A DNA stretch of 64,000 nt, taken from assembly GCA_964491455.1 (NCBI GenBank), contig CAZBFM010000002.1:28947-92946 (forward strand), read 5' to 3'. Shown piece after piece: positions 16,138 through 43,874 of the stretch (its first letter is position 1; each line of letters opens with the position of its first letter). The position numbers and the translations under genes were made by a program. Below the pieces are notes generated by a model. It was given only the letters and a program-made list of their open reading frames with translations, did no database searches and was not told where the DNA came from. This DNA comes from an uncultured Candidatus Saccharibacteria bacterium (GTDB taxonomy: Bacteria > Patescibacteriota > Minisyncoccia > 2-02-FULL-40-12 > GWA2-44-9).

Positions 16138-17718
16138 ATGGCAACACCAACAATCCTCAAACTCACGGGACAGACACTCACCACACACGACGTACAGGCG
16201 GTCGTTACCCACCCTCGCCTGCAGGTGCGCGTTGCACCCGCCGCTCTCATTGGAATGCGCAAATCCAAAAAACTTCTCGATGCCACTCTCACCGAGCGCA
16301 TTATCTATGGCGTCAATACAGGTTTTGGTCCAATGGCCTCTCATATTATTGGTCGCGATGACCTCCTACAACTCCAGCTCAATCTTGTGCGCAGCCACTC
16401 CAGTGGCATCGGAGCTCCGATTGATTCCAACCTCGTACTTGCGGCAATGGTCATTCGCCTCAACACACTCTCAAAGGGATTTTCGGGCGCGTCCGATGCC
16501 GTCGCCCATCAACTCGAAAAGTTTATCAACGCCCGCATCACTCCTATCATCCCAGAGCACGGCGCTGTTGGAACAAGTGGCGACCTCGTGCAACTCGCAC
16601 ACATTGCACTTGCCCTCATTGGAGAAGGTGAGGTGCACTACCGCGGCGAACGCATGCCGACCGCAACTGCGCTCGCAAAAGAGAAAATTGCACCACTTAC
16701 GCTCGGACCAAAAGAGGGGCTAGCACTGATCAATGGCACCGCTGGAATGACGGCTGTTGCTGCAATCCTCTGTGAAGCGGCGGCACGCATTGTTGCGCTC
16801 AGCCTCCGCACCGGTGCGTGGTCGCTTGATATCGTGGGTGGATTCGACGACAGTATTAGCGAGCGCATTCATGCGGTACGCCCACACGCCGGCCAACGAG
16901 TCGCCGCTGCTGCCCTTCGAGGTCTCGTCGCCAAAAGTGGCCGCATGAAAAATCGCGAAGCATTCAACAAGAAGCACGCTATTTCCGATGAGGTCCACAA
17001 AATCGCCGAAGATGTTCAGGAGATGTACTCCCTTCGATGCATACCGCAGATTGTTGGGCCCGTGCTTGATGCGTTCTGGAGAGTCCGTAGCGACGTCACC
17101 ACGGAAATGAATTCTGCCACTGACAATCCGATTGTGGACTGGGAGCGTGGCGTCTTTCTCCATGGAGGCAACTTTCATGGTGAATACATCGCCGCTGCAG
17201 TCGACTACCTCAAGACTGGCATGATCAAGCTCACTATGCTCAGCGAGCGGCGCATCAATTACTTCATGAATCCTGCAATCAATCATCGATTGCCTCCATT
17301 TGTGAATCTGCACACTCCTGGACTTACCCTCGCGCTCCAAGGCATGCAATTTGTCGCCACCTCCACAGCAGCACATAGTCAATCGTTGGCATTCCCCCAT
17401 CATATTCACTCCATTCCAACAAATGGGGATAACCAAGATGTTGTGAGCATGGGATTTGATGCAGCCCTCATCGCCACCAAGGCAATTGAAAATGCATATG
17501 CCGTCCTTGCTATTGAGATGGTGACACTCGCTCAAGCCACCGATGCTCTGAAGTGCTCTCGCGAACTATCGCCCGAAAATCAGCAACTCTATCGGGCAAT
17601 TCGCAAGCTCACTCCCCCCGTGATCGAAGATCGCCCACTTGCACCTGATCTTGAGCGCATCGTCGCGTTTCTCAAGTCATCACCAACACTGCCCATCGAC
17701 TCACTCAGGAAGCAATGA
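16138..17718 (+). CDS. Aromatic amino-acid ammonia-lyase/aminomutase family (HAL/PAL/TAL, MIO-dependent) homolog.
   Basis: Family-typical GTSGDLVQLAHIAL with Thr-Ser-Gly at the MIO-forming triad (canonical Ala-Ser-Gly), plus NTGFG and the conserved C-terminal fold. 526 aa. Confidence 0.8.
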   Translation: MATPTILKLTGQTLTTHDVQAVVTHPRLQVRVAPAALIGMRKSKKLLDATLTERIIYGVNTGFGPMASHIIGRDDLLQLQLNLVRSHSSGIGAPIDSNLVLAAMVIRLNTLSKGFSGASDAVAHQLEKFINARITPIIPEHGAVGTSGDLVQLAHIALALIGEGEVHYRGERMPTATALAKEKIAPLTLGPKEGLALINGTAGMTAVAAILCEAAARIVALSLRTGAWSLDIVGGFDDSISERIHAVRPHAGQRVAAAALRGLVAKSGRMKNREAFNKKHAISDEVHKIAEDVQEMYSLRCIPQIVGPVLDAFWRVRSDVTTEMNSATDNPIVDWERGVFLHGGNFHGEYIAAAVDYLKTGMIKLTMLSERRINYFMNPAINHRLPPFVNLHTPGLTLALQGMQFVATSTAAHSQSLAFPHHIHSIPTNGDNQDVVSMGFDAALIATKAIENAYAVLAIEMVTLAQATDALKCSRELSPENQQLYRAIRKLTPPVIEDRPLAPDLERIVAFLKSSPTLPIDSLRKQ

Positions 17719-19199
17719 CACCGCGCGACTTGCAAACGTTTTTTGATGCTCACGCACAACGCAATTGGGTGAAGCATTACTTCTCGTTTGACGTTGCGAC
17801 ATTCGAGCGCCTCCTCCACCACCGCGACGAAACCTTTTGGAATACTCTTGGCGCTCGTAGGGCTCTCAAGTTATTTCACGACGCAGCTGTGCGCGTACCC
17901 GCATATAAGGACTTCCTTCGCACCAATCGCATTCGCCATGCAACAGTAAAAACAATCGCAGACTTTGCGCGCGTGCCCCGCACCACCAAGGAGAATTACA
18001 TCAACCGCTATGCACTCAGCGATCGTTGCTGGGATGGCATACTCTCCGCTACCAGCATCATCGCGATGAGCTCCGGGACGAGTGGCGAGCCAAAATTCTG
18101 GCCCCGAGGTGGCTTCTCTGAATTCGAAGCGGCGATCATTCACGAGCTCACGTATCGTTCACTTTTTTCAATTCACAAAAAGAGAACGCTTCTCGTTATT
18201 GGGTTCCCCATGGGTGTGTATGTATCGGGCATCGCCACACTTCTGCCGAGCTGGATGGTAGCGCAGCGAGACTACGACTTGACGATTGTGGCCGCCGGCA
18301 ACAATAAAGTCGACATGCAACGCATCACGCAACACCTCCGAACTGCATTCGATCAAGTCGTTCTTATTGGCCACCCATTCTTCATTAAAGATGTACTCGA
18401 AACGGGCGCAGCGGAAGGTGTTGATTGGAGCACAATCACCACGTCACTTCTGTTCTGTAGTGAAGGATTTAATGAACAGTGGAGGGATCACGTTGCATCT
18501 GTCGCTGGTAGTACGCCCGACTCGGTTCGCATATTCAACACGTATGGCTCGTCGGAGACACTACTCATTGGTCACGAAACACCAGTAAGTATTGCCCTCC
18601 GTAAAACCATGAACGACACATTAACGCCGAACATATTCCAGTACAATCCATTCTTGCGATACCTCGATGTCACCGATGGCATTCTCAACTTTACTCTCAA
18701 CAGCGGAGTGCCCCTCATTAAGTACGACCTCGCCGATGGCGGGACCATCCTTCCTTTTTCAGAGGCAACACAACATCTTTCACCATCGCTTCGTCGGTCT
18801 GCGTGGAAGCTTCCGTTTGTTACGCTCGATGGTCGGCGTGACAATACAATTATCTTCTATGCGGCCAATATCTATCCAGAACACATTCATGCCGCACTCA
18901 ATGACAAGAAATTTTTGCGCTCCATAACGGGCAAATTTGCGATGCGAAAAGAGTACCTGAAAAATAAGGATGAATTCCTAGAAATACACGTAGAGCTTCG
19001 CCCTCGCCAAAAAGTCACCGCAGCACTCGCCACTGCAATTGCCAAGCACGCCACCTCGCGACTATTAGATATCAATATGGAGTACAAATTTCTTTGGTCG
19101 AACCTCGACAAAGACATCCGCCCGCGCGTCATTTTGCACCCCTACCAATGCGAGCCCTATTTCCGCGCCGGACTAAAACCTCGCTATATCATCAAATGA
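17715..19199 (+). CDS. PaaK-like adenylate-forming enzyme (phenylacetate-CoA ligase / F390 synthetase family).
   Basis: SSGTSGEPKFWPR P-loop-like AMP-binding motif, about 490 aa. Its ATGA start overlaps the lyase stop, indicating translational coupling. Confidence 0.65.
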   Translation: MTPRDLQTFFDAHAQRNWVKHYFSFDVATFERLLHHRDETFWNTLGARRALKLFHDAAVRVPAYKDFLRTNRIRHATVKTIADFARVPRTTKENYINRYALSDRCWDGILSATSIIAMSSGTSGEPKFWPRGGFSEFEAAIIHELTYRSLFSIHKKRTLLVIGFPMGVYVSGIATLLPSWMVAQRDYDLTIVAAGNNKVDMQRITQHLRTAFDQVVLIGHPFFIKDVLETGAAEGVDWSTITTSLLFCSEGFNEQWRDHVASVAGSTPDSVRIFNTYGSSETLLIGHETPVSIALRKTMNDTLTPNIFQYNPFLRYLDVTDGILNFTLNSGVPLIKYDLADGGTILPFSEATQHLSPSLRRSAWKLPFVTLDGRRDNTIIFYAANIYPEHIHAALNDKKFLRSITGKFAMRKEYLKNKDEFLEIHVELRPRQKVTAALATAIAKHATSRLLDINMEYKFLWSNLDKDIRPRVILHPYQCEPYFRAGLKPRYIIK

Positions 19200-20341
19200 C
19201 CCCCGTCGACCACCCAACGCTCTTTACGCCACGCATGCCAGCGCATCAATCTGCACTGAGGAAACTGCGCTCCGATGTATCGGTGCGCGTCATTGATACC
19301 TACGAGCACCAACTCGCTGAACTGTACGTGATCCAAAACCCTGCTGTCATTGGGCTGCCACCAGCAGAGCTTGCAACTCGTATAGCGACATACGTAGCTC
19401 GTACTGCGCGACGAGCCACGCTTGAGCAGCAAGGAACCTGGGCCTGGCTTCCCTGGCAGCGAACACTCGTGCATATTCTTCCTGAACGAGAATTCTTTCT
19501 CGTTCGAACCAATCGCAATGGAAATCTCATCACACCACAAGAACAACAACGGTTCTATCGGTGCGTCGTCGGCGTAGCGGGACTATCCGTTGGCGGTAGC
19601 ATTGCCCTCACCCTCGCACTCCAGGGTGGCGCTCGAACTATTCGAATTGCGGACTTCGATTCACTTGAGCTCTCCAACACCAACCGCATACTAGCGGGAG
19701 TACATGAACTCGCCACGCCAAAAACAACCATTGTAGCTCGTCGCATTTGGGAGATGAATCCGTATGCACGCATCACCATCTTTCAAGATGGCCTCACTGA
19801 AAAGAACATACCGTCATTCATGCGAGGCCTTGATGTTATCGTCGACGAGATGGACCAAATGGCAATCAAACAGCTCATTCGCGAACAAGCACGTGCCAAT
19901 AAAGTCGCGCTCGTATCGACTGCCGATAATGGAGATACGAGCGTCGTGGACGTGGAACGCCACGACCTCAAGCAGACTCCGTACTTCCTGGGTCGACTTG
20001 GAGCGACGTCCGTTAAGCAATTCCACTCGATGAATAAACTTCAAATCATCCGCGAAATCACACGTCTCATGGGCCCTGAAAATGTTCCTCCTCGCATGCA
20101 ATCGTCTCTTTCAGAAATCGGCAACACCCTCGTGTCAGTCCCTCAGCTCGGTGGCACCGCACTCATGGGCGCAGCGGCAACCGCATACTGCGTACATCGC
20201 ATCGCCGCTGGCCTTCCGCTCCCATCTGGTCGCTCCATTATTTCTCTCGATGAGAAGCTCGAGCCCGGGCACCAAGCAAGCGCTGCAAAAAATCGTCGCG
20301 CAAAAAATACTCGCATCTTTGCAAAGAACCTCGGCCTGTAG
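19196..20341 (+). CDS. E1-like (ThiF/MoeB family) adenylyltransferase with an N-terminal extension of about 120 aa.
   Basis: Rossmann motif VVGVAGLSVGGSIALTLALQGG...IRIADFDSLELSNTNRI, which is the E1 signature. ATGA overlap with the upstream ligase. Confidence 0.7.
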   Translation: MTPVDHPTLFTPRMPAHQSALRKLRSDVSVRVIDTYEHQLAELYVIQNPAVIGLPPAELATRIATYVARTARRATLEQQGTWAWLPWQRTLVHILPEREFFLVRTNRNGNLITPQEQQRFYRCVVGVAGLSVGGSIALTLALQGGARTIRIADFDSLELSNTNRILAGVHELATPKTTIVARRIWEMNPYARITIFQDGLTEKNIPSFMRGLDVIVDEMDQMAIKQLIREQARANKVALVSTADNGDTSVVDVERHDLKQTPYFLGRLGATSVKQFHSMNKLQIIREITRLMGPENVPPRMQSSLSEIGNTLVSVPQLGGTALMGAAATAYCVHRIAAGLPLPSGRSIISLDEKLEPGHQASAAKNRRAKNTRIFAKNLGL

Positions 20342-20409
20342 CACGTATCCGCAGATGCCATACTACCGTTTTTTTTGGCACGATTTCGCGGTATACTAAA
20401 AATCATCAC

Positions 20410-21444
20410 ATGCGTACCGCCATCGAACACATTCTCGCAGCGGCCGTACTCGCTCCCTCCGGAGACAATTGCCAACCGTGGCGTTTTGAAGTTGCACGCG
20501 ACACCATTGATGTGCACCTCGTGAGTGAGCGAGACACATCGCTCTATGGCGTCGGTCACTTTGCATCCTACATCGCACACGGAGCGCTCTTAGAGAATAT
20601 CGCCATAGCGGCGCGCGCGCAGGGAGTTCAGGCAACTATTTCGGAATTCCCTACGCCACACAATCAGCTCCACACCGCACGAATAACACTCTCGTCGATA
20701 CCCACGCGCCATGATCCTCTAGCCAGTGCGATTGCCGAGCGTTGCTCGAATCGAAAACCATACCTCTCCACACCCTTAACACCGCACCAACGAGATGTGC
20801 TTCGTGAAGCGGGAGGAAACGACACGATCTTCATCGAAGACGAATTAACTCGAAAACTTCTTGCATCCTCGCTGGCGGCAAATGAGAAGGTGCTCTTCGA
20901 AAATAGAGCGATGCATACGTTCTTCTTCGATCACATGCTCTGGACTGCACATGCGGCAGCAGCGAATCCCATTGGATTTCATCCAGCGTCACTCGAGCTC
21001 CCCGCACCAATTTATGGCATATGGCCAGCGTTTCGACATTGGCCAATCATGGCCACCTTAACGTCTCTTGGATTTGCGAATGCAATCGCTTTCGGGAACG
21101 CCCCGATCTATGCTTCAGGAGCAGCTCTCGCCTGTATTACAATCGTCGAGCGATCTGCGCGCGACTATCTTCACAGTGGCCGCACACTCCAACGCCTCTG
21201 GCTAACCGCCACTAACCTTGGGTTGAGTGCACAAATCCTCACAGGCATCCCGCTCCTTATGAATGCAGTTCATGCACGCACACCATGCCTTTCACCAAAG
21301 CATGCGCGCTTCATCGAACGGCACTACGCTCATCTACAACACCTTGTTGGAGCTCCACATGCAGAGATCGCTTTTTTTCTTCGAGTTGGTGTCAGCCCTA
21401 AGCCAAGCGCTCGCACGCCCCGTGCAGCACCCACCATCACATGA
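20410..21444 (+). CDS. Extended nitroreductase-family (FMN-dependent) protein.
   Basis: N-terminal PSGDNCQPWRF nitroreductase motif. Its 344-aa length suggests two nitroreductase-like lobes. The stop overlaps the histidine kinase start (ATGA). Confidence 0.6.
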   Translation: MRTAIEHILAAAVLAPSGDNCQPWRFEVARDTIDVHLVSERDTSLYGVGHFASYIAHGALLENIAIAARAQGVQATISEFPTPHNQLHTARITLSSIPTRHDPLASAIAERCSNRKPYLSTPLTPHQRDVLREAGGNDTIFIEDELTRKLLASSLAANEKVLFENRAMHTFFFDHMLWTAHAAAANPIGFHPASLELPAPIYGIWPAFRHWPIMATLTSLGFANAIAFGNAPIYASGAALACITIVERSARDYLHSGRTLQRLWLTATNLGLSAQILTGIPLLMNAVHARTPCLSPKHARFIERHYAHLQHLVGAPHAEIAFFLRVGVSPKPSARTPRAAPTIT

Positions 21445-23099
21445 CCACACCGATGTCACTCGGACTTATTGGAAGCTCGCTTACTAGTGGATTAGGCAAT
21501 CTCGATCTTGTCGCGATTCTCATCGCCGTCGCGGCGCTCCTCACGCTTGGATTTATCGTGTACTTCAATAATCCGAAGAGTGCAACGAATCGAGCATTCC
21601 TCATGTTCTCGCTCATGACCGTTGCATATGGTTCCGCCAATTTTGCAAGCTACCAAATAACGGACCCCTGGCAGGTACTATGGCTGTTGCGGATCACGAT
21701 GTTTTCGGCCGTCTGGCATGCTGCATCTTTTTTCTATTTATTTTTTGTATTTCCTCGTCAACAAGCCGCACTGCCACGCTGGATCACACTCGGTGCGTTT
21801 CCCGTTGCGATGGTGACGAGCGCACTCACACTTACGCCATATGTGTTTCGCTCTATCCAAGTCGTCTCCCAGGTGGGCTCGGTAACCAATCCAGTGCGCG
21901 GTCCTGCTATCCCGTTTTTCGGAGCCGTAGCGGGCGCATTTGTGCTCGCTGGTCTCGCAGAACTTCTCAAAAAAACGTTCGCGGGTGAAGAGATTCAACG
22001 AAAGCAGGCGCGCGTCATTCTCGCGGGTGCTTCTATGACATTTTTACTCATTCTTGTCTGTAATGTGCTCCTGCCGCTGGCATTCAACATACTGAGATTC
22101 ATACCGCTTGTTCCTATCTTCTTTCTTCCCTTCGTCCTCTTGACCGCACATGCGATTCGCAAATATCGATTCCTGGAAACAAAGGTACTTGCAACCGAAA
22201 TGATCGCGCTCGTCTTGGTCATTCTCAATATGATCGAACTAGTCATCGCAAAGGATCTTGGAACTCTTATATTGCGCGTGGGCGTGTTCTCGGCTGTGCT
22301 GGCATTTAGCATCATGCTCATCAAGTCCATTGTCCGCGAGGTCAACCAGCGCGAACGACTTCGAGCGCTGTCTGACGACCTCCAGAAAGCGAATGCGAAG
22401 CTTACGCAACTGGACACGCTTAAATCTCAATTCTTGTCATTTGCCTCGCATCAACTTCGGACGCCACTAACAGCAATCAAGTGGCAGGCTCAGCTCTTAC
22501 GTGACGGCACCGTGGGGCAACTCCCAGAGAAAGCACTGGAAATTGCGCATGGGATTGAAGAATCGTCACAGCGCATGCTCGAGCTCGTTTCGGAATTCCT
22601 CAACCTCCGAAAACTCGAAGAGGGAAAAATGGAATACTCATTTGAGCCCACCGATATCGCCGAGCTCACATCGCGCATCGTAGAAGACATTCGACCGCTC
22701 GCCTCCCATAAGGGCCTCGAGCTCACATTCGTGAATCATGCTTCGCAATCACTCTGCTCAGTTGACCGACAAAAATTCTCGCAAGTCGTTCAAAATCTCG
22801 TCGATAATGCCATCAAATACACCGACCATGGCAGCGTTCAGATCTTCATAAACAACACCGCGGAAAAAAGGATTCGCATCGTGGTGACAGATACTGGCCA
22901 TGGGATAGACCCAACCGTTATTAGCTCGCTCTTTGAGCAGTTTGTTCGCGATAAGAAAGAAGCAAAAACAATTGAAGGCACAGGGCTTGGCCTTTACATC
23001 GCCAAGCAGATGATGGACGCCCACCAGGGAAGCATCCTTGCCTCGTCTCCGGGAAAAGGAAAGGGCAGCACATTCACGATTGAACTGCCAACGCTCTAG
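21441..23099 (+). CDS. Sensor histidine kinase with a multi-pass membrane sensor domain.
   Basis: At least 6 TM helices, then an H-box SHQLRTPLTAI, an N-box, DTGHGIDP (G1) and GTGLGLYIAKQ (G2). Confidence 0.85.
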   Translation: MTTPMSLGLIGSSLTSGLGNLDLVAILIAVAALLTLGFIVYFNNPKSATNRAFLMFSLMTVAYGSANFASYQITDPWQVLWLLRITMFSAVWHAASFFYLFFVFPRQQAALPRWITLGAFPVAMVTSALTLTPYVFRSIQVVSQVGSVTNPVRGPAIPFFGAVAGAFVLAGLAELLKKTFAGEEIQRKQARVILAGASMTFLLILVCNVLLPLAFNILRFIPLVPIFFLPFVLLTAHAIRKYRFLETKVLATEMIALVLVILNMIELVIAKDLGTLILRVGVFSAVLAFSIMLIKSIVREVNQRERLRALSDDLQKANAKLTQLDTLKSQFLSFASHQLRTPLTAIKWQAQLLRDGTVGQLPEKALEIAHGIEESSQRMLELVSEFLNLRKLEEGKMEYSFEPTDIAELTSRIVEDIRPLASHKGLELTFVNHASQSLCSVDRQKFSQVVQNLVDNAIKYTDHGSVQIFINNTAEKRIRIVVTDTGHGIDPTVISSLFEQFVRDKKEAKTIEGTGLGLYIAKQMMDAHQGSILASSPGKGKGSTFTIELPTL

Positions 23100-23137: not shown

Positions 23138-23533
23138 ATGGACAACGCAAAACCCCTCATTCTCGTTACCGATGATGACGCGAGCATTCGGAATATTCTC
23201 CACATAAAACTGGAAGCCGCTGGCTTTCGAGTATCCGAAGCAACGAATGGACAGGAAGCGATCGATTTTTGCAAAAAGGAAAAGCCGGCACTTATCGTTA
23301 TGGACGTGGGGATGCCGGTCATGTCAGGCACAGAGACAGTAACTGCAATAAAGAAAGACGATGCGATAAAGGATATTCAAATTATATTCTTAAGCAATTT
23401 CGGAGAGGAAAACGAGCTCAATGCGTGGCTTGATCAGAAGTTCGCAAAAGAACTCGGCGCTGTAGATTACATGAAAAAGTCGGAGGATATATCCAGGATC
23501 ATCGAGAAGATAACGTCTCTCGTTCATGTCTAG
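23138..23533 (+). CDS. Stand-alone response-regulator receiver (CheY-like).
   Basis: ILVTDDDASIRN...LIVMDVGMPVMSG...KK carries the receiver Asp/Lys signature. 131 aa. Confidence 0.8.
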   Translation: MDNAKPLILVTDDDASIRNILHIKLEAAGFRVSEATNGQEAIDFCKKEKPALIVMDVGMPVMSGTETVTAIKKDDAIKDIQIIFLSNFGEENELNAWLDQKFAKELGAVDYMKKSEDISRIIEKITSLVHV

Positions 23534-25256
23534 CGATGGCGCAAAAACTGTTCTTATCATCGAAGATAACTTCTTTATGGCGCAACTATTGCGCGAGAAG
23601 CTGGAACACCAAGGCTTTGCGGCAATCCATGCTCAAAATGGGAACATCGGCGTCGATGAAGCGCTCAAGAAAACCCCAGCGCTAATACTCGTCGATATCC
23701 CCCTCTCCGGCGACATGGACGGCTTTGCAACACTTACTGCACTCCGAGGCATCCAGTCCCTCGAACACGTACCCGTCCTCACGCTATTCACCACAAAGGA
23801 TCAAGGCGATATCGAAAAGCTGGAAAAAATAGGCTTTGCGGAGTACCTCGTAAAAGCAGATGCAAACGCCGATGCCATCGTTCTGAAAGTCGTCGAGCTC
23901 ATCACCGGAGTTTTACAAAAATCGACCAAGATCATCGCGCCGGGCGAAAAAGAACTGAAGACGGTGCCACCGAAGGTACGCGCAGTGATAGCAGAATCAG
24001 GCAACGAAGGATCACAGTATGTCGCGCGCGCCGCAACTATCAAGGCGGAAGTAGCAACCATGTTGAAACTTCCCGAAGCGGAAATATCCATCATCACACT
24101 TGTCGATGACATGATGATATTTGCATTTCTAGCCAGAGCGTCAGACGTTCACCTTGAGCCGTTTGAAGAGACTCTCGTTGCTCGTATGCGTATCGATGGG
24201 ATCCTGAGCGACGAATTCACATTCCCTAAGGCGCTCCACGCCGGCATCATTTCGCGCATCAAAGTATTAGGCGGCATGCGCACCGATGAACACCAAGCCG
24301 CTCAAGATGGACGCTTCCAGATGACAATCCCAGATATTCAAAAGCAATTCGATGTTCGCGTCAGTATTATCCCGACATATTACGGTGAAAATGGAGTCTT
24401 GCGTTTACTCGCAGAACAAACATCTATCAGCTCACTTGATAATTTAGCCTTTACTGATTTCGATCGTGCTCGCATCCGCAAGGCCGTCAAAACACCCTAC
24501 GGCATGATCCTCGCTACAGGACCTACGGGATCCGGAAAAACCACCACGCTCTACACCATTCTACGAGAGCTCAACACGCGAGCAGTCTCCGTCATCACCA
24601 TCGAAGATCCGATTGAGTACTCACTCGAGGGCGTCGATCAAATACAGGTCAACACCCGTACGGGCCTCACCTTTGCCACCGGTCTTCGATCTATCCTTCG
24701 ACAAGACCCCAACATCATTATGGTTGGAGAGATTCGCGATGAAGAAACCGCATCGATCGCAATCAATGCCGCGCTCACGGGACACAAGCTCTTAAGCACC
24801 ATCCACACGAACGACGCGGCAACAACACTTCCCCGCTTGCTTGATATGGGCATCGAGCCATTTCTTGTGGCGTCAACGGTCAATGTTGCCGTCGGACAGC
24901 GTTTAGTTCGCATGATATGCAATGAGTGCAAGGTACCCCGACGGATCACAGAGGGCGAGTTTAATGCTCTCAAAGAAAACATTCCGGAATCGATTCTCGG
25001 AGATCATCACGATTACTTTCAGGGCAAGGGCTGCGATGCGTGTGGGCAAACGGGCTATCGCGGACGTATGGGTATCTATGAGATACTAGAGATGAGCGAC
25101 TTCATTCGTGAGGCGCTGATGAGGCGCGCGGACGCTGGAGAAATTAAAAAGATTGCAGTCAAAAATGGCATGACCACGCTCCTAGAAGATGGATTCAAAA
25201 AAGCAGTGGAAGGTCGCACCACCATCGAAGAACTACTTCGCGTTATTCATGAATAA
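23526..25256 (+). CDS. pilB: Type IV pilus/T2SS assembly ATPase (PilB/GspE family) with an N-terminal receiver domain.
   Basis: An N-terminal REC fold (KTVLIIEDNFF...LILVDIPLSGDMDG) precedes a GspE core. The core carries Walker A GPTGSGKTTT, the Asp box and His box (GEIRDEETA...TIHTNDA), and a tetracysteine motif CNEC...CDACG. Confidence 0.85.
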   Translation: MSSDGAKTVLIIEDNFFMAQLLREKLEHQGFAAIHAQNGNIGVDEALKKTPALILVDIPLSGDMDGFATLTALRGIQSLEHVPVLTLFTTKDQGDIEKLEKIGFAEYLVKADANADAIVLKVVELITGVLQKSTKIIAPGEKELKTVPPKVRAVIAESGNEGSQYVARAATIKAEVATMLKLPEAEISIITLVDDMMIFAFLARASDVHLEPFEETLVARMRIDGILSDEFTFPKALHAGIISRIKVLGGMRTDEHQAAQDGRFQMTIPDIQKQFDVRVSIIPTYYGENGVLRLLAEQTSISSLDNLAFTDFDRARIRKAVKTPYGMILATGPTGSGKTTTLYTILRELNTRAVSVITIEDPIEYSLEGVDQIQVNTRTGLTFATGLRSILRQDPNIIMVGEIRDEETASIAINAALTGHKLLSTIHTNDAATTLPRLLDMGIEPFLVASTVNVAVGQRLVRMICNECKVPRRITEGEFNALKENIPESILGDHHDYFQGKGCDACGQTGYRGRMGIYEILEMSDFIREALMRRADAGEIKKIAVKNGMTTLLEDGFKKAVEGRTTIEELLRVIHE

Positions 25257-25279: not shown

Positions 25280-26356
25280 ATGAAATGGTTTGACTCACTC
25301 AGCTCATTGGGATTTCGCTTGTCACTCAAAGACAAGATGCTGTTTGCGCGTCACATGGAAATGATGACCCGCTCGGGCATGCAAATACTCGACGCCCTCG
25401 AGATTCTCAAGAAGCAAACCAAATCCAAACCATTTATCTCAATGGTCGACCATCTCATCGAAGATGTTCGCAATGGCCAGAACTTATCTGTTGGGATGCA
25501 GCGCTATAAGAATGTGTTCGGTGAATTCTTCATCAATCTTATTCGCGTTGGAGAATCATCAGGAACACTTTCGGAAAATTTTGCCTACCTCGCCACCGAG
25601 CTGGGCAAGAAATCTGAGCTTCAGAAAAAAATTCGTGGGGCAATGGCGTATCCTCTCGTCATTCTCTTTGCCACGTTTGGCATATCGGGAATTCTTTCGT
25701 TCGTCATATTCCCAAAAATTCTTCCCGTTCTTCGAAGCCTCAACACAACACTCCCTCTCTCTACTCGTATTTTCATTTCCATATCGGAATTTATGATTTC
25801 CAATGGACTCCTTCTCTTCGGAGTTGTTATTGGCGGCATCGTGCTTGGGACCCTCCTGTTACGCATCGGTGCGATCCGGCTCTTCTGGCATCGTATTATC
25901 CTCGCAACACCTTTTGTGAATCGCATGTCAATCGACATTAATATTATCAGCATATCTCGCACACTCAATCTCCTCCTCCGCGGAGGCGTCAAAATAGTCC
26001 AGGCACTAGAAATCACCTCCGACACACTAACGAATCTCGTATATCAGACTGAACTACGGATCATTGCGCAAGCAGTGCAACGAGGAGAACCCATGAGTAA
26101 ATCGATGATCCTCAATGAGCGACTCTTCCCTCCTACGTTTAGTCAGATGGCCGCAGTTGGTGAAAACACGGGAAAGCTCGATGAGACGCTCGTGTTCTTA
26201 GCGGACTTCTATGAAAGCGAAATGGATAATTCGACAAAGAGCATGAGCAACGTATTAGAGCCGGCGATGTTGCTGGCAATGGGAGGCATTGTCATGTTCG
26301 TCGCCATCTCGATCATCACACCCATTTATTCGGTCACGCAAACACTTGGTCGCTAA
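25280..26356 (+). CDS. pilC: Type IV pilus inner-membrane platform protein (PilC/GspF family).
   Basis: Two GspF-type repeats, 3 TM segments, and a position immediately after pilB. Confidence 0.8.
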   Translation: MKWFDSLSSLGFRLSLKDKMLFARHMEMMTRSGMQILDALEILKKQTKSKPFISMVDHLIEDVRNGQNLSVGMQRYKNVFGEFFINLIRVGESSGTLSENFAYLATELGKKSELQKKIRGAMAYPLVILFATFGISGILSFVIFPKILPVLRSLNTTLPLSTRIFISISEFMISNGLLLFGVVIGGIVLGTLLLRIGAIRLFWHRIILATPFVNRMSIDINIISISRTLNLLLRGGVKIVQALEITSDTLTNLVYQTELRIIAQAVQRGEPMSKSMILNERLFPPTFSQMAAVGENTGKLDETLVFLADFYESEMDNSTKSMSNVLEPAMLLAMGGIVMFVAISIITPIYSVTQTLGR

Positions 26357-26357
26357 T

Positions 26358-28115
26358 ATGAAACAACGAACGGGACAACGGGGGTTCACCGTCCTTGAGA
26401 CGTTAATCGGAATCGCGATTCTTTCTATCGTGAGCACCGCTGTGTATTTTTCGTATTCCAATATCCTCGATATCGTTCAGGCGGCGCAGTACAACAACGC
26501 GGCGCTAAGCATCATGGAATCAAACGTCGAATCAGTTCGAAATATGCGCTACGAAGATATCGGCGTCATTGGCGGAGCTCCCGCGGGTCTCATCCCCCAG
26601 GTAACATCCGTGACGCTCGGTACAACGACCTACACGCTCCACACGTATGTTCGCAATATTGACGATTCCTTCGACGGAACTCTGGGTGGAACGCCCAACG
26701 ATACCGCCCCAGCTGATTATAAGCTCGTTGAATTCCAAGTTACCTGCGATAGTTGCACTCGCTATCGCGAGCTCACCATGGCAACCTATGTAGCCCCAAA
26801 GAATCTCGAGAGTGCCAGCAAAAATGGCAACCTCTTTGTTCGCGTGCTCGATGCGTCGGGTATTCCCCTGAGTGGCGTGACTGTCCGGGTTACGAATAAC
26901 AAGGTGACACCCGCTATCGATCTCACGGATACGACGAATACGAATGGCATCCTGCAACTCGTCGGGATAGCTACGAGCTCTTCAGGGTATCACCTAGTTG
27001 CGTCAAAAACCGGCTACAGCACCGATCAGACTTATCCCATAGGCGCACCTGCGAATCCGGTAAAGCCGGACGCCACGGTCGCGAATCAACAGCTTACCAT
27101 CTCAACTCTTGCCATCGATGCACTTGGGTCACTACGCATTCAAGCCCGCACAGCATATTGTCAAAACGTGCCCTCTTTTGATTTTCTTATTACCGGAGCA
27201 CAGCTCATTGGCACGAAACCGGACGTGCCTAAATATTCCGTACCGCTCACCACAGACACCAATGGGTCGTACGTGAACCAAAGCCTCGAATGGGATTTCT
27301 ATTCGATTCGCGCAACCGATGCTTCCTATGATCTCGCTGCCACCGTCTCATCGCTCTCGTTCTCACTAGCACCGAGTGAGTCAAAAACTCTCTCGTGGAT
27401 GCTCGCTGATAAATCAAGCAATAGCACAACGCTATCAGTCGTCGATCAATCAGGGACTCCAATCTCGGGTGCAACGGTGCGAGTCACAGGCACCTCCTAT
27501 GATCAATCACGCACCACGAGCTACTATCCGTTCACACAAACAACCTGGGCAAGCAATGAGTTCACCAGCAAAAGCACACTCATGAGCACGGCAACGCCCG
27601 GATTGCTCACGCTGGGTATGATTGCTGGATCGTACGCGAGCGCTAGCAATGAGTGGCTCATTTCGAACACGATAGATCTTGGCACCTCCAGCACATCACT
27701 CGGGGTTCTACGCTGGTCTCCCATAGTTCAACCTCCGACCGTAGGCACAGGTGCGTTGCAGATACAAATCGCAGGCAACTCTGATAACGCGACATGGAAT
27801 TGGGTCGGCCCTGATGGAACACCTGGAACATTTTTCTCGACACCTGGGCAACTCATTCCTGAAAGTCTTCGTGGGTCCCGCTACCTCCGCTACCGCGTCG
27901 TCATGGACACTGCTGACGTCAATCAATCACCTCAACTCGATGATATATCGCTGGAATTTTCTTCTGACTGCGTTCCCCTTGGGCAAGTCTACTTTAATGG
28001 CCTCGCCCTTGGCAGCTACACCGTGACCATTTCTCATCCGAATTATCAGGCGTTTACCGGGACCCTCGTCATCTCAAGCGACTGGAGCCGGTCTACATTC
28101 ACACTCTTACCATGA
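26358..28115 (+). CDS. Large prepilin-like protein (about 585 aa; pseudopilin or putative tip adhesin).
   Basis: Class III signal peptide KQRTGQRGFTVLETLIGIAIL (G/FTxxE cleavage-methylation motif), followed by Ig-like/carboxypeptidase-regulatory-like beta domains. The start was moved to the ATG at 26358, just after the pilC stop. Confidence 0.7.
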   Translation: MKQRTGQRGFTVLETLIGIAILSIVSTAVYFSYSNILDIVQAAQYNNAALSIMESNVESVRNMRYEDIGVIGGAPAGLIPQVTSVTLGTTTYTLHTYVRNIDDSFDGTLGGTPNDTAPADYKLVEFQVTCDSCTRYRELTMATYVAPKNLESASKNGNLFVRVLDASGIPLSGVTVRVTNNKVTPAIDLTDTTNTNGILQLVGIATSSSGYHLVASKTGYSTDQTYPIGAPANPVKPDATVANQQLTISTLAIDALGSLRIQARTAYCQNVPSFDFLITGAQLIGTKPDVPKYSVPLTTDTNGSYVNQSLEWDFYSIRATDASYDLAATVSSLSFSLAPSESKTLSWMLADKSSNSTTLSVVDQSGTPISGATVRVTGTSYDQSRTTSYYPFTQTTWASNEFTSKSTLMSTATPGLLTLGMIAGSYASASNEWLISNTIDLGTSSTSLGVLRWSPIVQPPTVGTGALQIQIAGNSDNATWNWVGPDGTPGTFFSTPGQLIPESLRGSRYLRYRVVMDTADVNQSPQLDDISLEFSSDCVPLGQVYFNGLALGSYTVTISHPNYQAFTGTLVISSDWSRSTFTLLP

Positions 28116-28708
28116 GGCTTTACGGATTCACCCTTATAGAAATACTCGTGGCAATGACGATCACGTCTATGACCCTTGTTTTTGTAACGTATTTCTCACT
28201 CAATATTTCGAGCTTTGGAACTGACCTAAATTCTCGACTAGAATCAGAATACGAGCTTCAGCTGGCCCTTCGCACCATGTCATCGGAAATTAGATCTATG
28301 GGACCGGGTAGTAATGGCGCTTACCCCATAGCCACAGCAACGGCAACGACGTTTATGTTTTATAGCGACATCGATGGAGATGGTTCATTCGAGCAAGTGC
28401 GCTACTTCCTCGAGGGAACGGTTCTTAAAAAAGGAGTGACTCGAGCAACAGCAACGGAGCCGATCCTGTATCCGTCAGCAAACGAAACAGTCATTGAAAT
28501 CGCGCACTACCTTACCTCGACATCTCTCTTTTCCTTCTTCGCTGAAGGCCATCCTGACATTATTGCCCCGCTCGCAACGCCCGTGACACTCTCTCAAATT
28601 CGCCTCGTGCGTATTACCGGCACTGTTGATCGCGACACCATGCAGCCGCCACTCCCAAGCACGCTCTCAACGTCTATCACCATTCGAAATTTAAGAGGCG
28701 AAATATGA
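28112..28708 (+). CDS. Minor pilin (prepilin-type N-terminal domain).
   Basis: MRLYGFTLIEILVAMTITS prepilin motif. Confidence 0.7.
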   Translation: MRLYGFTLIEILVAMTITSMTLVFVTYFSLNISSFGTDLNSRLESEYELQLALRTMSSEIRSMGPGSNGAYPIATATATTFMFYSDIDGDGSFEQVRYFLEGTVLKKGVTRATATEPILYPSANETVIEIAHYLTSTSLFSFFAEGHPDIIAPLATPVTLSQIRLVRITGTVDRDTMQPPLPSTLSTSITIRNLRGEI

Positions 28709-30147
28709 CAACAAGCACGCTCGCACCTCAAAAGGGTCAGATGACGCTCTATGTCCTGATATTTAGCGCAGTCGCTCTTGTCGTGCTCTCAGGTTTCGTA
28801 CTATGGGCAGATAGTAATATACGAATTGTATTTCGTGACGTCGATAAATCGCAAGCCTTCATGGCGTCCGAGGCGGGCATTGAATATTATCGCTGGCATC
28901 TTGCGCATGCGCCAAGCGATTATAAAGACGGAACCCAGTCCAGTGGTCCCTACACACACGACCTGAAGGACAAGGATGGAAACGTGATTGCCGCATTCTC
29001 GCTTGGCATAACCGCACCACCAACCGGATCAACTGTCGTCACCCTGAATTCAACGGGAACGGTAGCCGCGAATTCCACGGTGAGCAAAATCATTGAGGCC
29101 AAGATGGCAATCCCATCATTTGCGAAGTATGCCGCTGTCATCGGTTCAGAAGTACGATTCGGTGAAGGAACCGATCTCTATGGCCCCATTCACAGCAATG
29201 GAGGCGTACGCATGGATGGTATCGCCCATAACATGGTTACCAGCGCGGTGGCAACGTACGACGACCCCGACCATAACGGTGGCAATGAATTTGGCGTTCA
29301 CACGCATATATCACCAGTCGATCCGCTGCCACCAGCAGCCACACCGAAACGAAGTGACATTTTTATGACAGGACGATCGTTTCCAGTCGCACCCGTTGAT
29401 TTTCTTGGCATAGCACAAGACCTCTCTTCAATGAAAACCATTGCGAATGCTAACCAATCATACTGGAAGCCATCGGGTGCGAAAGGATATGAAATTATAC
29501 TGAAAACAAATGACACCTATGACCTCTATAAGGTCACTTCGCTCGTCGCGGCGCCATCAGGATGTACAAACTCCCAAAATCAAACCGGTTGGGGCACCTG
29601 GAGCATCTCGGCCAAAACACTCATCGGCAATAAGCCGATTCCATCCAGCGGTGTTATCTTTGTCGAAGACGACGTATGGGTAAGCGGTCAAATCTCTACA
29701 GCACGCGTTACGATCGCTTCCGCCAGATTCCCCGACAATGCTAGTACTCGCTCGAGTATCACCATTAACAACGACCTGAAGTACTCGTCGTATTCCGGCT
29801 CAGATGTCATCGCGTTGATCGCTCAAGACAACATAAATATTGGCATGGTATCAGCAACAACGCTCCGCATTGATGCCGCCCTCATGGCAGAAAACGGGAG
29901 AGTGGGACGTTACTATTACAATCCCCCCACCAACAAGAACAATTGTGGACCTTATCATTCACGCAGTTCCATCACAAGCTTTGGCATGCTCGCTTCAAAT
30001 CAACGCTATGGCTTTGCGTATACGGACGGAACCGGCTACATCACTCGCACCATCATTTACGATGCTAATCTCTTATATGGACCACCTCCGAGCTTCCCAC
30101 TCACGGCTGACTTCTACACGCCGATTTTCTGGAACGAAAAAAAGTAG
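28705..30147 (+). CDS. PilX-like or pilus-associated protein with an N-terminal hydrophobic anchor.
   Basis: QKGQMTLYVLIFSAVALVVL pilin-like N-terminus lacking Glu5, followed by a roughly 440-aa extracellular region. Confidence 0.5.
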   Translation: MTTSTLAPQKGQMTLYVLIFSAVALVVLSGFVLWADSNIRIVFRDVDKSQAFMASEAGIEYYRWHLAHAPSDYKDGTQSSGPYTHDLKDKDGNVIAAFSLGITAPPTGSTVVTLNSTGTVAANSTVSKIIEAKMAIPSFAKYAAVIGSEVRFGEGTDLYGPIHSNGGVRMDGIAHNMVTSAVATYDDPDHNGGNEFGVHTHISPVDPLPPAATPKRSDIFMTGRSFPVAPVDFLGIAQDLSSMKTIANANQSYWKPSGAKGYEIILKTNDTYDLYKVTSLVAAPSGCTNSQNQTGWGTWSISAKTLIGNKPIPSSGVIFVEDDVWVSGQISTARVTIASARFPDNASTRSSITINNDLKYSSYSGSDVIALIAQDNINIGMVSATTLRIDAALMAENGRVGRYYYNPPTNKNNCGPYHSRSSITSFGMLASNQRYGFAYTDGTGYITRTIIYDANLLYGPPPSFPLTADFYTPIFWNEKK

Positions 30148-30268: not shown

Positions 30269-30718
30269 ATGTTCGCAAAGAAACAACAAAAAGGTTTCAC
30301 GCTTATCGAAATCTTGGTAGTCATCGGTATCATCGCAATCTTGGCAGCAGTTGTTATTGTCGCCTTGAACCCGGCTCGTCAGTTCGCACAGGCTCGCAAC
30401 ACGCAGCGCTGGAGCAACGTCAACACGATCCTCAATGCAGTTGGCCAGCGCATGGCTGACAATCGTGGCATCTGGAAGACAACCTGCGGATCCGCAACAG
30501 TTACACTTCCCGCAACCGCAACGCATATCGGAAGCGGAGCATCTTTGACTGATTTGGAGTCCTGCATCGTAGACACCTACGTCTCAACGATGGTTATGGA
30601 TCCGTCAGACGGTACAAATGCTGATACCGGCTACACAATCGTTAAGTCAACGAACGGCCGTATCACCGTCGCAGCTCCTGCAGCAGAGCTCGAGGAAGTC
30701 ATTTCCGTCACTCGCTAA
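30269..30718 (+). CDS. Type IV major pilin candidate.
   Basis: KGFTLIEILVVIGIIAILAAVV canonical prepilin leader with Glu5, 149 aa, and a strong terminator immediately downstream. Confidence 0.8.
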   Translation: MFAKKQQKGFTLIEILVVIGIIAILAAVVIVALNPARQFAQARNTQRWSNVNTILNAVGQRMADNRGIWKTTCGSATVTLPATATHIGSGASLTDLESCIVDTYVSTMVMDPSDGTNADTGYTIVKSTNGRITVAAPAAELEEVISVTR

Positions 30719-30744: not shown

Positions 30745-30775
30745 CACAACGCCCGAAAGGGCGTTGTGTGTTTGT
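30745..30775 (+). terminator. Rho-independent terminator after the major pilin gene.
   Basis: acaacgccc-gaaa-gggcgttgt stem-loop followed by GTGTTTGTG. Confidence 0.65.
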
Positions 30776-30789
30776 GATATACTTGGCAT

Positions 30790-32418
30790 ATGCAAATCAT
30801 GCGAGCATTCTTCGTAACGCTATGCATACTGGTGATCGCTCCAACGGCATTCGCACAAGAATATTTTAGTTTTAATCCTGATTATTCTCGAAGCATTCTT
30901 GTTGCAACGTCTGACGCTCTTTCTGAAGTATTTCTTCCGCTCAATGATTATCTCGGCGGATATGATTTTTGGCTAAGCAATCAGTCAACTCCTGGCGATG
31001 CCACGTTCACCATAGGAACGCTCAGTGGCGAGACCATTGATTCGCAACTCATCTCACTCCCCGCGATCGCAGACAATGAGACGGGATCACGCATACACAT
31101 ATCGCTCCCCGCACAAATCCGCGTCAGTCCTCAGACTCCCTACCGGATCACCATTCAAAGCGCCGCTCCGACACTTCGCATATACTTCTCCGATGCGACG
31201 CAACTCCTAGCCCACAACGGTTCGCCAACTGCGATGTACGCGGGTGGACGTGCCCGCATAGGTGATGAAGATATGGGATTTAGTTTTAAATTTTCTCTGC
31301 ATGAATCAACCGAACGCACCCCACCCATTCTATCAGGTGTATCCGTAGAGCAGCTCTCCCCATCAGAAGCACGACTATCCTGGTATGCCAACGAACCCGT
31401 TGATCACAACCTCATATATAATGACAAAGCGCTCACGTGGTCGTCTGAATATTCGTCGTGCGTAAGCCCCGGTCAACCATGTTCTGTATATTTTGACATT
31501 CAAACCGCCACTACCTATTCCTACACTCTGACCATACGCGACGTCTGGGGTAACACAAGCTCATTCTCGGGAGTATTCATTTCGGCAGGAGAAGCGTCAT
31601 CATCAATTGCACCATCCCCGTCGCCAACAGCGACTAGCACACCAGTAGCCACCTCGACACCAGCTCCAGATGTACAACCACCAATCATCTCCAAGGCACG
31701 ACTTGTCACCGCAACAGCCAGCTCCGCTACATTCGCATGGACAACGAACGAGGCGGCGACAAGCTCTGTGGTAACGCACATTCTTCCTTTTATAATTACC
31801 GCCGGCTGGAATACTGACACAACACTAGAGCTTGAACACTTCGTTACCGTTTCAGGTCTACCCGCTGACACTTTTTTCCGCGCAACGATATCATCGCGCG
31901 ATGCAGCAAATAACGACACGACTCACTACCTACAGTTCACAACACCTTCTGGCGTATCCGTCGCATCGTCGACTCCTACACCAAACGCGACACACACGCC
32001 CTCACCTCTGATCGTCGAACCGGTAATCACAGGCGCTCCGAATGCCCCCCAACTTCGCTGGGCGCCTCCGCTCAATGGAGAGCCTTCCGATGGCTATCGA
32101 ATTGATATATTTGACGCAAACAACAATCTCGTGCGAACGATATCGGTTGCTTCCGGGAGTCATACCGCTGCCCTTGGAATTTCCCCGAGTAGCACTCAGC
32201 GCATCGTTGTATATGAAAATAACAATGGCGTCTATCAAAAGACAGGAGCACCGACCATACTCAAGGGAGCTGCAACTTCAAAGCGCACCTCCTTGTCGTA
32301 CGTTGGGCCAGCGCTCATACTCTTAGGGATCTTCGTGGGCGCGTGGTTGCGAGTGCGCAGGAGAGCAGCTCATGCGCCAACACCCCTTCCACCCACTACA
32401 AAGGTCGAATCACGATAA
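30790..32418 (+). CDS. Secreted, C-terminally membrane-anchored surface protein with FN3-like repeats and Ser/Thr/Pro linkers.
   Basis: Signal peptide MQIMRAFFVTLCILVIAPTAFAQ, a PSPSPTATSTPVATSTPAPD linker, and a C-terminal TM helix plus basic tail (LILLGIFVGAWLRVRRR). Confidence 0.6.
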   Translation: MQIMRAFFVTLCILVIAPTAFAQEYFSFNPDYSRSILVATSDALSEVFLPLNDYLGGYDFWLSNQSTPGDATFTIGTLSGETIDSQLISLPAIADNETGSRIHISLPAQIRVSPQTPYRITIQSAAPTLRIYFSDATQLLAHNGSPTAMYAGGRARIGDEDMGFSFKFSLHESTERTPPILSGVSVEQLSPSEARLSWYANEPVDHNLIYNDKALTWSSEYSSCVSPGQPCSVYFDIQTATTYSYTLTIRDVWGNTSSFSGVFISAGEASSSIAPSPSPTATSTPVATSTPAPDVQPPIISKARLVTATASSATFAWTTNEAATSSVVTHILPFIITAGWNTDTTLELEHFVTVSGLPADTFFRATISSRDAANNDTTHYLQFTTPSGVSVASSTPTPNATHTPSPLIVEPVITGAPNAPQLRWAPPLNGEPSDGYRIDIFDANNNLVRTISVASGSHTAALGISPSSTQRIVVYENNNGVYQKTGAPTILKGAATSKRTSLSYVGPALILLGIFVGAWLRVRRRAAHAPTPLPPTTKVESR

Positions 32419-32935
32419 ATCGCCGCTTAAAGGCCGGAAGGAACGAGGCAAGGGAGCATGAGCGAATGCCACGCTCTTCGGTCTCCTCTTCGGGATCGTT
32501 GTAGTAGACATACCCATCTTCATATCCAGTGATCACAACGATATGCCCACCGCCTCGTTCTGGATCAAATCCTGAAAAAACGCTCGCCAGAACCGGTCCA
32601 CTGAGAAGATTTTCAAGAAGCTTCTCCCATGCAAGCTCCGCGCTTAGCGGTGTTTTCCCCTGCAACGCGAAGTCCTCATTGAAACCCGTGTACCCAAATT
32701 GCTCGGCAAGCCGAGCCAGTCCGGAATGTATCCATCCGATGCCCTCGCGATAGGCTCCGATGGCTAACCCATCTTCGAGTAATACGCGCAAAGTCGGCAG
32801 TGTATTTTTCACGTCCACAGAATTCCAATACGCCAGCACCATCAAAAGAGCCGTTACGCCGCAACCACGCGAGCGCCACTCGTGACGCTCGATGTCCGCA
32901 TGCTGTGAATAGAATGGAACAAGAAAGCGCGGCAT
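32396..32935 (-). CDS. Peptidase C39-like (papain-fold Cys/His) domain protein.
   Basis: RGCGVTALLMVLAYW (catalytic Cys context) and GGGHIVVITGY (His). About 180 aa, matching the stand-alone C39_2-type architecture. Confidence 0.55.
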   Translation of the reverse strand: MPRFLVPFYSQHADIERHEWRSRGCGVTALLMVLAYWNSVDVKNTLPTLRVLLEDGLAIGAYREGIGWIHSGLARLAEQFGYTGFNEDFALQGKTPLSAELAWEKLLENLLSGPVLASVFSGFDPERGGGHIVVITGYEDGYVYYNDPEEETEERGIRSCSLASFLPAFKRRFIVIRPL

Positions 32936-32957
32936 GGCGTGTACAAACTATCTGCTG

Positions 32958-33030
32958 TGGACCCTAGCAGGTTCGAACTGCTGACCTCCTCATTGCAAAT
33001 GAGGCGCTCTACCAGCTGAGCTAAGGGCCC
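32958..33030 (-). tRNA. tRNA-Ala (anticodon UGC).
   Basis: Reverse complement GGGCCCTTAGCTCAGCTGGTAGAGCGCCTCATTTGCAATGAGGAGGTCAGCAGTTCGAACCTGCTAGGGTCCA. It has the G3:U70 Ala identity pair, anticodon loop TT-TGC-AA, a T-loop GTTCGAA, and no encoded CCA. Confidence 0.9.
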
Positions 33031-33041
33031 GTATACCGCGG

Positions 33042-42375: not shown

Positions 42376-43874
<1,499 letters not shown>

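Follow-up and report, generated by a model that had tools for sequence, protein, structure and literature searches.

The DNA considered here is a 64,000-nucleotide window of contig CAZBFM010000002.1 (positions 28,947 to 92,946, forward strand) from assembly GCA_964491455.1 of an uncultured Candidatus Saccharibacteria bacterium, and all coordinates below refer to this window. Its plus strand carries a gene for a type IV pilus extension-type ATPase of the PilB kind in which a two-component receiver domain (REC) forms the N-terminus, termed here the REC-PilB fusion. Open reading frames (ORFs) and their translations were derived from the window sequence, and domains were assigned by Pfam scans (matches listed at E<=0.01) and NCBIfam scans. 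A first-pass annotation had given 23138-25256 as the locus; it described the contents correctly, but ORF calling divides the span into two plus-strand genes, a stand-alone receiver and the REC-PilB fusion, and the fused gene proper is 23526-25256.

The stand-alone receiver (23138-23533, 131 amino acids; REC131 below) consists of a single Response_reg domain (78.6 bits), and its ORF shares 8 nucleotides (ATGTCTAG) with that of the fusion. The fusion is a single unbroken frame of 576 amino acids, in which a receiver domain (23547-23906, residues 8-127) is connected by a tether (23907-24086, residues 128-187) to the PilB motor core of N2D and C-terminal (CTD) lobes (24087-25256, residues 188-576). 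Upstream, on the same strand, lies a gene for a 552-amino-acid sensor histidine kinase with a multi-pass sensor (21441-23099), whose ATG overlaps the stop codon of a nitroreductase-like gene. Both upstream genes are as first annotated. The six transmembrane segments proposed for the sensor compare with a seven-transmembrane assignment by Pfam (HisKA_7TM, residues 28-246) and with the outcome of a strict hydropathy scan, which places about six segments within residues 23-294, some of them C-terminal to the Pfam match.

The motor part of the fusion is well defined. Pfam places T2SSE at residues 188-572 with 394.5 bits against a gathering score of 24.9, and residues 183-573 align with the solved PilB structure 5ZFR at E=1.7e-102; among solved structures, its nearest relatives are PilB and PilF. 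The Walker A sequence GPTGSGKT (332-339), the Asp box (356-364), the Walker B segment (397-405) and the His box (425-431) are all present, as are the zinc-site pairs CNEC (465-468) and CDAC (503-506). The four cysteines, C465, C468, C503 and C506, and the ATPase motif columns are invariant across 75 homologues, which bears out the earlier statement that the tetracysteine motif and the Walker boxes are intact. This zinc motif marks extension and secretion ATPases and is lacking in PilT. The protein has no match to Sigma54_activat, and other P-loop families give just weak generic matches under the Pfam cut-offs. The fusion is thus a PilB-type motor with intact motifs, predicted to be an extension ATPase.

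The N-terminal part is a receiver. Response_reg covers residues 9-111 at 52.9 bits (E=4.8e-14; gathering score 30.2), so that both domains of the proposed REC plus T2SSE architecture lie above their Pfam gathering scores, and solved receivers in the PDB match this region at E about 1e-9 by HMMER. AlphaFold2 modeling with the 75-sequence alignment predicts a canonical (beta-alpha)5 fold, b1-a1 to b5-a5, for residues 8-127 at a pLDDT of 85-92, followed by a disordered linker at residues 131-160 with a pLDDT of about 30, a helix at residues 161-179, and the N2D and CTD lobes. The linker columns are variable and gap-rich in an alignment of 118 homologues, and the helix that leads from the linker into N2D is conserved. 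No match to MshEN (PF05157) or to any other N1 domain is found in the fusion protein at the listing threshold, whereas four loci from relatives in the candidate phyla radiation (CPR; loci L007, L016, L018 and L057) carry MshEN at this place. The claim that a CheY-like receiver takes the place of the N1/MshEN domain is therefore upheld. A degenerate N1 domain, the candidate that the first-pass annotation had set against it, is ruled out by the Pfam result, the PDB alignments and the predicted fold.

The active site of the fused receiver departs from the textbook quintet at one position. E13, D14, D57 (codon 23694-23696), Y107 and K110 are all present, and the Thr/Ser position at the end of strand b4 is taken by Phe88 (codon 23787-23789), the last residue of that strand. 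Phe88 stands opposite the conserved Thr of RR468 (3DGE), 3GT7 and PleD in HMMER alignments; a MAFFT alignment with CheY, Spo0F and RR468 places it likewise. The b3-a3 loop (DIPLSGDMDG) carries a one-residue insertion, which offsets the numbering of the fused receiver. Of the residues singled out for checking, the Asp and the Lys are thus present and strongly constrained, but the Thr/Ser is gone.

Conservation was read from the set of 118 homologues of at least 540 amino acids and from the separate alignment of 75. Among the 118, D57 is invariant, E13, D14 and K110 are essentially so, and position 107 is mostly Tyr. In the smaller set, positions 1 to 188 contain just three invariant residues, D57, G103 and K110, and conservation reaches 90% or more at E13, D14 and F88. 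Constraint within the domain is thus strongest at the phosphorylation pocket, and the fused receiver of the window is probably phosphorylatable. Substitutions of CheY Thr87 uncouple phosphorylation from output (PMC13636085). With Phe at this position in the window's clade, any coupling of D57 to output could not follow the classical Thr-Tyr route.

Across the family, the signature residues vary more widely. Protein searches yielded 140 PilB-sized proteins with an N-terminal receiver, and these were sorted by their signature residues. The window's clade makes up most of them: 120 of the 140 keep the Asp and the Lys and have Phe, Leu or Met at the Thr position. Six are fully canonical with Thr or Ser (P0131, P0284, P0288, P0311 and P0354 among them), and six more keep the Asp with a degenerate pocket or Lys (among them P0136, from Yanofskybacteria, P0362 and P0364). 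The remaining eight have no phospho-acceptor Asp (P0338 and P0339, from Liptonbacteria, P0351, P0357, P0359, P0365, P0346 and P0360), and such receivers show the pattern E-S-S-S-H-Y-E at the signature positions. Since Asp-less and degenerate members exist, a fused receiver can persist without phosphorylation.

The fusion is a conserved family, limited among the named sequences retrieved to Paceibacteria-type CPR bacteria. The best 120 database matches (59-100% identity) all carry both PF00072 and PF00437, and those with names all belong to Patescibacteria (Paceibacterota, Yanofskybacteria, Minisyncoccia). When the divergent member P0131 served as the query, Liptonbacteria and additional members were recovered, and a scan of genome contigs adds a Jorgensenbacteria member (L002). 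The survey of REC-PilB fusions suggested in the first-pass annotation thus returns the 140 proteins described above, and every named one is from Patescibacteria. The 90% cluster of the window protein contains MBP6885868.1 (Candidatus Paceibacterota), annotated as 'Flp pilus assembly complex ATPase component TadA'; the architecture described here corrects database names of this kind. A representative search of the full library is dominated by tandem double-ATPase proteins and holds two full-length REC-PilB representatives, which makes it a poor guide to spread outside the CPR. Several apparently full-length matches in the genome scans proved to be a separate receiver gene and an MshEN-PilB joined by tblastn, and an apparent REC-PilT fusion in Heliophilum (L078) was spurious, with a match of 27 residues.

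The gene order around the fusion is conserved as well: a 7TM kinase is followed by a free receiver of 127-138 amino acids, REC-PilB, PilC and pilin genes. This order persists at 82% (L086), 70% (L081, with a second kinase), 60% (L084/L085, and L082, in which a five-gene insertion separates the kinase), 53% (L002) and about 51-53% identity (L091, L092 and L093). The closer relatives have the same downstream set as the window, and L091 and L092 have a different set of pilin genes. REC131 lies directly upstream of REC-PilB in nine of ten related loci examined, the exception being L001, and the kinase and the receiver are both co-located with the fusion in nine of eleven loci, the window included (L002, L081, L082, L084, L086, L091, L092 and L093 being the others). 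Homologues always encode the free receiver separately, with a spacing that varies among an 8-nucleotide overlap, a 2-nucleotide gap and a 5-nucleotide gap. An assembly or frameshift artefact and a REC-REC-PilB read-through product are ruled out, as the fusion recurs in 140 proteins.

A further gene set precedes the kinase in the window (16138-21444, plus strand). It encodes an aromatic amino-acid lyase (526 amino acids, 519 bits in Pfam), a 494-amino-acid protein, a ThiF-like protein and the nitroreductase-like protein. The lyase/ThiF/nitroreductase-like set is also found ahead of the 7TM kinase in L084/L085 and L091, and partly in L093, L082, L092 and L002; L086 and L081 do not have it. These genes may encode a small-molecule pathway with a functional link to the kinase.

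The history of the fused receiver can be approached through more distant CPR loci. In L007, L016, L018 and L057, the gene order is kinase, one or two free receivers, MshEN-PilB and PilC, and the ATPases are 45-54% identical to that of the fusion. Pfam finds MshEN at 31-64 bits in the PilBs of these four loci and of L055. Fused receivers share a mean identity of 31.8% with the free receivers of MshEN-PilB loci, compared with 25.3% for the REC131 type and 24.8% for reference receivers. The fused receiver of L002 reaches 40-41% identity with those free receivers, the level seen among the fused receivers themselves. The [ST]NL and YLVKA motifs are common to fused receivers and the free receivers of MshEN-PilB loci, and the kinases of both kinds of loci share the H-box SHQ[LIV][RK][ST]P. 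This shared H-box suggests that the fused receiver descends from the cognate regulator of that pil-linked kinase. The basal fused receivers P0131, P0288 and L002 retain Thr. In the simplest history, a pil-linked free receiver would have been fused to PilB with loss of MshEN, and the change from Thr to Phe would have followed later in one large clade.

Other arrangements of the N-terminus occur nearby in sequence space. Among the closest ATPase relatives (55-60% identity) are short PilBs of 405-425 amino acids that have no N-terminal domain (L003, L004, L005, L011 and P0138); they come from Yanofsky- and Liptonbacteria, and a PilC gene comes next. Since N-domain-less, MshEN and REC forms all occur, the N-terminal module of CPR PilBs is highly exchangeable. 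These proteins bear on one reading of the fusion, in which the receiver fold simply replaces N1D for docking or oligomerisation at PilC, independently of phosphorylation, and the neighbouring kinase system regulates something different, for instance another REC131 target. The N-domain-less forms, in which the module is dispensable, are consistent with such a scaffold, as are the Asp-less and pocket-degenerate members and the locus without an adjacent kinase (L001). We nevertheless consider it unlikely, because the window's clade keeps its phosphorylation pocket invariant, because the kinase and REC131 are co-located with the fusion in most loci examined (L001 has neither, and L090 has no kinase), and because the operon encodes no DNA-binding regulator.

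Elsewhere, receivers have become fused to PilB-type ATPases independently. REC-MshEN-T2SSE proteins (P0156/P0278) and MshEN-T2SSE-REC proteins (P0154, P0226) were retrieved, and their neighbourhoods look like those of large non-CPR genomes. PilB-like proteins of about 1000 amino acids with two tandem T2SSE units are also abundant (P0121-P0135, P0285-P0358) and outrank single-unit PilBs in the searches; the named ones belong to Moranbacteria/Moraniibacteriota, the Parcubacteria group and Patescibacteria.

The catalytic motifs of the kinase are intact. HisKA (62.2 bits) and HATPase_c (93.2 bits) follow the HisKA_7TM match, and the H-box with H337 (SHQLRTPL), the N box (DNAIKY), the G1 box (DTGHGI), the F box (FEQF) and the G2 box (GTGLGL) are all present. 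Within the H-box (22449-22469, residues 337-343), Gln occupies the position after the His, where Glu or Asp is usual. An SHQ-type H-box with this Gln is found in 11 of 13 pil-linked CPR kinases, at both REC-PilB and MshEN-PilB loci. This survey covered L016, L018, L057 and L081-L093; the motif pattern gave no H-box for L084 and L007.

The stand-alone receiver, for its part, has a fully canonical quintet (D12, D13, D56, S86 and K114). Receivers of the REC131 type keep DD/D/[ST]/K in nine of nine aligned loci, including L090, where the fused receiver has no Asp, the canonical free receiver is kept and no kinase lies within 6.6 kb upstream. REC131 also has a conserved Trp-containing segment of about 15 residues (NELNAWLDQKFAKEL) between alpha4 and beta5, which is found in the homologues in L081-L093 too and contains an insertion of six residues that CheY, Spo0F and RR468 lack.

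The contrast between the two receivers raises the possibility of a relay, in which REC131 would be the true substrate of the kinase and, once phosphorylated, would engage the Thr-less receiver on PilB, perhaps by forming a REC-REC heterodimer. The fused receiver would then be a cis adaptor or pseudo-receiver, and phosphorylation of D57 would be secondary, serving as a sink or for tuning. The constancy of REC131, even beside an Asp-less partner, fits this arrangement, as do the loss of Thr/Ser in the window's clade and of the Asp in eight of the 140 proteins, and the Xanthomonas regulator DrdR offers a parallel, pairing a pseudo-receiver with a canonical receiver and acting on PilB and PilT by binding. 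On the other hand, D57 and K110 are invariant and E13 and D14 nearly so in the F-clade of about 120 members while the rest of the domain varies, and such constraint on an unused pocket is hard to explain. The single free receiver of MshEN-PilB loci, moreover, resembles the fused receiver and not REC131. A relay is the strongest rival account of the locus, and we hold it to be less probable than not.

The reading that we place first, at about an even chance, is that the motor comes under two-component control through its own receiver, with the kinase phosphorylating both D57 and REC131. In this scheme, the multi-pass kinase would autophosphorylate on His337 upon a signal from the membrane or envelope, and would pass the phosphoryl group to two acceptors, Asp57 of PilB and Asp56 of the co-transcribed REC131. 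The phosphorylated, tethered receiver would then alter its contacts with neighbouring protomers, the N2D lobe, the stand-alone receiver or PilC. These altered contacts could switch the assembly or activity of the hexameric motor at PilC, and hence pilus extension. The architecture, the intact motifs, the conservation of the pocket, the synteny and the ancestry of the receiver support this reading.

Several observations weigh against direct control. The Thr/Ser of the receiver quintet is replaced by Phe88, with Phe, Leu or Met at this position in 120 of the 140 members; the phospho-acceptor Asp is missing from eight members, and the pocket is degenerate in six others. The kinase has Gln instead of Glu or Asp adjoining its phospho-His. 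One relative at 69% identity (L001) has neither kinase nor free receiver within 6 kb upstream, and the stand-alone receiver is canonical in all nine loci aligned. The direct phosphorylation control proposed in the first-pass annotation is therefore retained in part: the architecture and the residues D57, E13, D14 and K110 are as it would require, but the Thr/Ser is replaced by Phe88 and some members have lost the Asp. Control of the motor by phosphorylation is plausible, with a coupling that is probably non-canonical.

A more specific proposal, which we consider unlikely to be correct as a whole, combines both receivers. REC131 and the Thr-less receiver of PilB would form a phospho-dependent pair, a CPR-specific two-receiver switch in place of c-di-GMP and MshEN, and the 7TM kinase would sense a product of the lyase/ThiF/nitroreductase-like set or contact with the host. 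If true, a chemical cue made by the episymbiont itself or supplied by its host would trigger deployment of the pili, and Phe in place of Thr would represent a new way of coupling a receiver to its output.

Downstream of the fusion, the window encodes the remainder of a pilus operon on the plus strand, in which genes are tightly packed or overlapping, including the ORFs past PilC. The PilC platform protein (25280-26356, 358 amino acids) contains two T2SSF repeats and is syntenic in relatives. It is followed by a large, adhesin-like minor pilin (26358-28115, 585 amino acids) with the N_methyl motif QRGFTVLE, CarboxypepD_reg and Ig-like domains and syntenic homologues; its start is likely the ATG at 26358, within a listed TTG ORF that opens at 26289. 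A minor pilin of 198 amino acids (28112-28708, GFTLIEILV) comes next, and then a conserved protein of 480 amino acids (28705-30147) with an N-terminal hydrophobic helix and syntenic homologues. The Pfam scan gave no match for the latter, which is probably, by inference, a PilX-like minor pilin or tip component. The major pilin candidate (30269-30718, 149 amino acids) carries KGFTLIEILVV and an N_methyl match of 38.1 bits, and the last gene of the syntenic block encodes an fn3-like, Ser/Thr/Pro-rich protein (30790-32418, 542 amino acids) with a signal-like N-terminus and a hydrophobic C-terminal segment. The closer relatives have the same series: a large minor pilin, proteins of about 200 and about 480 amino acids, a major pilin of about 150 amino acids and an fn3-like protein.

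A terminator-like hairpin (30745-30768, plus strand) with a 10-bp stem, seven G-C pairs and a T-rich tail lies 27 nucleotides past the major pilin gene. It is the top terminator match in the region and the only feature to stand out in the promoter and terminator scans, whose counts, that of terminators included, are not above shuffled expectation. Placed before the fn3-like gene, the hairpin might reduce read-through, a role known from other pilin operons. A gene for a Peptidase_C39_2/C70-like cysteine protease (32396-32935, minus strand) converges on the end of the operon, as it does in L081 and L086.

With PilC and its two T2SSF repeats beside prepilin-type major and minor pilins, the operon qualifies as a type IV pilus assembly system. 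PilT, PilM/N/O and the prepilin peptidase PilD were not found within the window, and the operon encodes no secretin. In the NCBIfam scan of the ATPase, GspE (TIGR02533) scores 492.6 against a cut-off of 630.25 and PilB (TIGR02538) scores 460.7 against 675.65. Both matches span only residues 169-574, and both miss their equivalog cut-offs because the N-terminus is unmatched. GspE being the better match, and PilT, PilM/N/O and a prepilin peptidase being absent from the window, the ATPase could belong to a type II secretion system or a competence pseudopilus, with the receiver gating secretion or DNA uptake. This is very unlikely, given the 149-amino-acid major pilin, three minor pilins including the adhesin-like one, the lack of a secretin and the PilB and PilF structures as closest solved relatives. 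CPR bacteria are not known to have an outer membrane for a type II secretion system. The pilus itself may take up DNA. Both a scaffold role and a secretion or competence role are less likely than direct control or a relay.

Two further features of the window lie outside the pilus locus. A complete 16S rRNA gene (42375-43881, minus strand) stands alone, with no 23S rRNA gene in the window, and tRNA-Ile(GAT) and tRNA-Ala(TGC), which normally lie in the 16S-23S spacer, are found about 9 kb away (32957-33113, minus strand); the rRNA arrangement is thus unlinked. Three consecutive ORFs of 691-725 amino acids occupy 49154-55489 (minus strand). The two that were scanned, which flank the third (51233-53308), each contain three Laminin_G_3 (concanavalin-like) repeats, and the products probably act at the cell surface or in adhesion.

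In CPR/Patescibacteria, attachment to hosts and movement on them centre on type IV pili, and the family offers a lead on how episymbionts regulate their pili. A receiver carried by the ATPase would connect the motor directly to a two-component kinase, within an operon that is conserved across Paceibacteria. The locus also provides a compact four-protein system in which to study how a PilT-like hexameric motor could be gated by receiver phosphorylation, and the natural canonical, Thr-less and Asp-less receiver variants allow comparison.

Among known systems, the canonical PilB/MshE-type ATPases (Geobacter PilB 5TSG, Thermus PilF, Vibrio MshE) share the N2D and CTD core, the motifs and the adjacent pilC and pilin genes with the fusion. 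They differ in that the fusion has no N1D/GSPII/MshEN domain and hence no c-di-GMP-binding module, and carries a receiver on a tether of about 60 residues instead. The CPR MshEN-PilB loci described above are alike in gene order, SHQ H-box and receiver motifs, with up to 41% identity between receivers. There, the receiver has a gene of its own and PilB retains MshEN; in the window, PilB carries the receiver and lacks MshEN, and REC131 occurs as a second type of receiver. A works-like analogy is offered by the REC-AAA+ proteins NtrC, NtrC1 and DctD, in which a tethered receiver gates a ring-forming P-loop ATPase by phosphorylation and dimerisation. Those proteins are AAA+ sigma54 activators, whereas the fusion is a PilT-like ASCE ATPase with neither a DNA-binding domain nor Sigma54_activat.

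Receivers acting directly on PilB have precedent, since DrdR of Xanthomonas campestris stimulates the ATPase activity of PilB and PilT, to which it binds (PMC13507683), and PatA-type regulators bind PilB1 and PilC (bioRxiv 10.1101/2021.06.11.447907). DrdR is a receiver-only protein with no output domain that combines a degenerate and a canonical receiver, much as the window pairs a non-canonical fused receiver with a canonical free one. It is, however, an orphan acting in trans on a proteobacterial PilB that keeps its N-terminal domain, whereas the receiver of the window is covalently attached and its kinase lies in the operon. The PatA-type (PATAN-REC) regulators PixE and PixG, and PilG and PilH, likewise are two-component receivers that control type IV pilus motors post-translationally. 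They act in trans, through PATAN or by an unknown route, under CheA-type kinases; the REC-PilB locus has neither PATAN nor CheA and joins the receiver in cis.

A 2024 review attributes control of PilB to c-di-GMP and MshEN, PilZ/FimX, Pil-Chp (PilG/PilH) and other cofactors or adaptors (PMC11656802), and a term search of it returned no mention of a receiver-fused PilB. Literature searches found no description of a REC-PilB, REC-GspE or REC-T2SSE fusion, though earlier mention in domain censuses is possible, and nothing on CPR, PilB and response regulators together; a term search of one study on Saccharibacteria type IV pili found no two-component terms. REC-MshEN combinations, such as Bd2402, were noted by Wang et al. 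2016 (PMC5013675). Like the REC-MshEN-T2SSE and MshEN-T2SSE-REC proteins, they place a receiver on the same chain as a PilB-type ATPase or MshEN. All of these keep MshEN, with the receiver before it or at the C-terminus, whereas the window's family has the receiver instead of MshEN. The REC-PilB fusion is accordingly a conserved yet uncharacterised architectural variant of known parts, with an unusual Thr-less receiver, and not a new kind of system.

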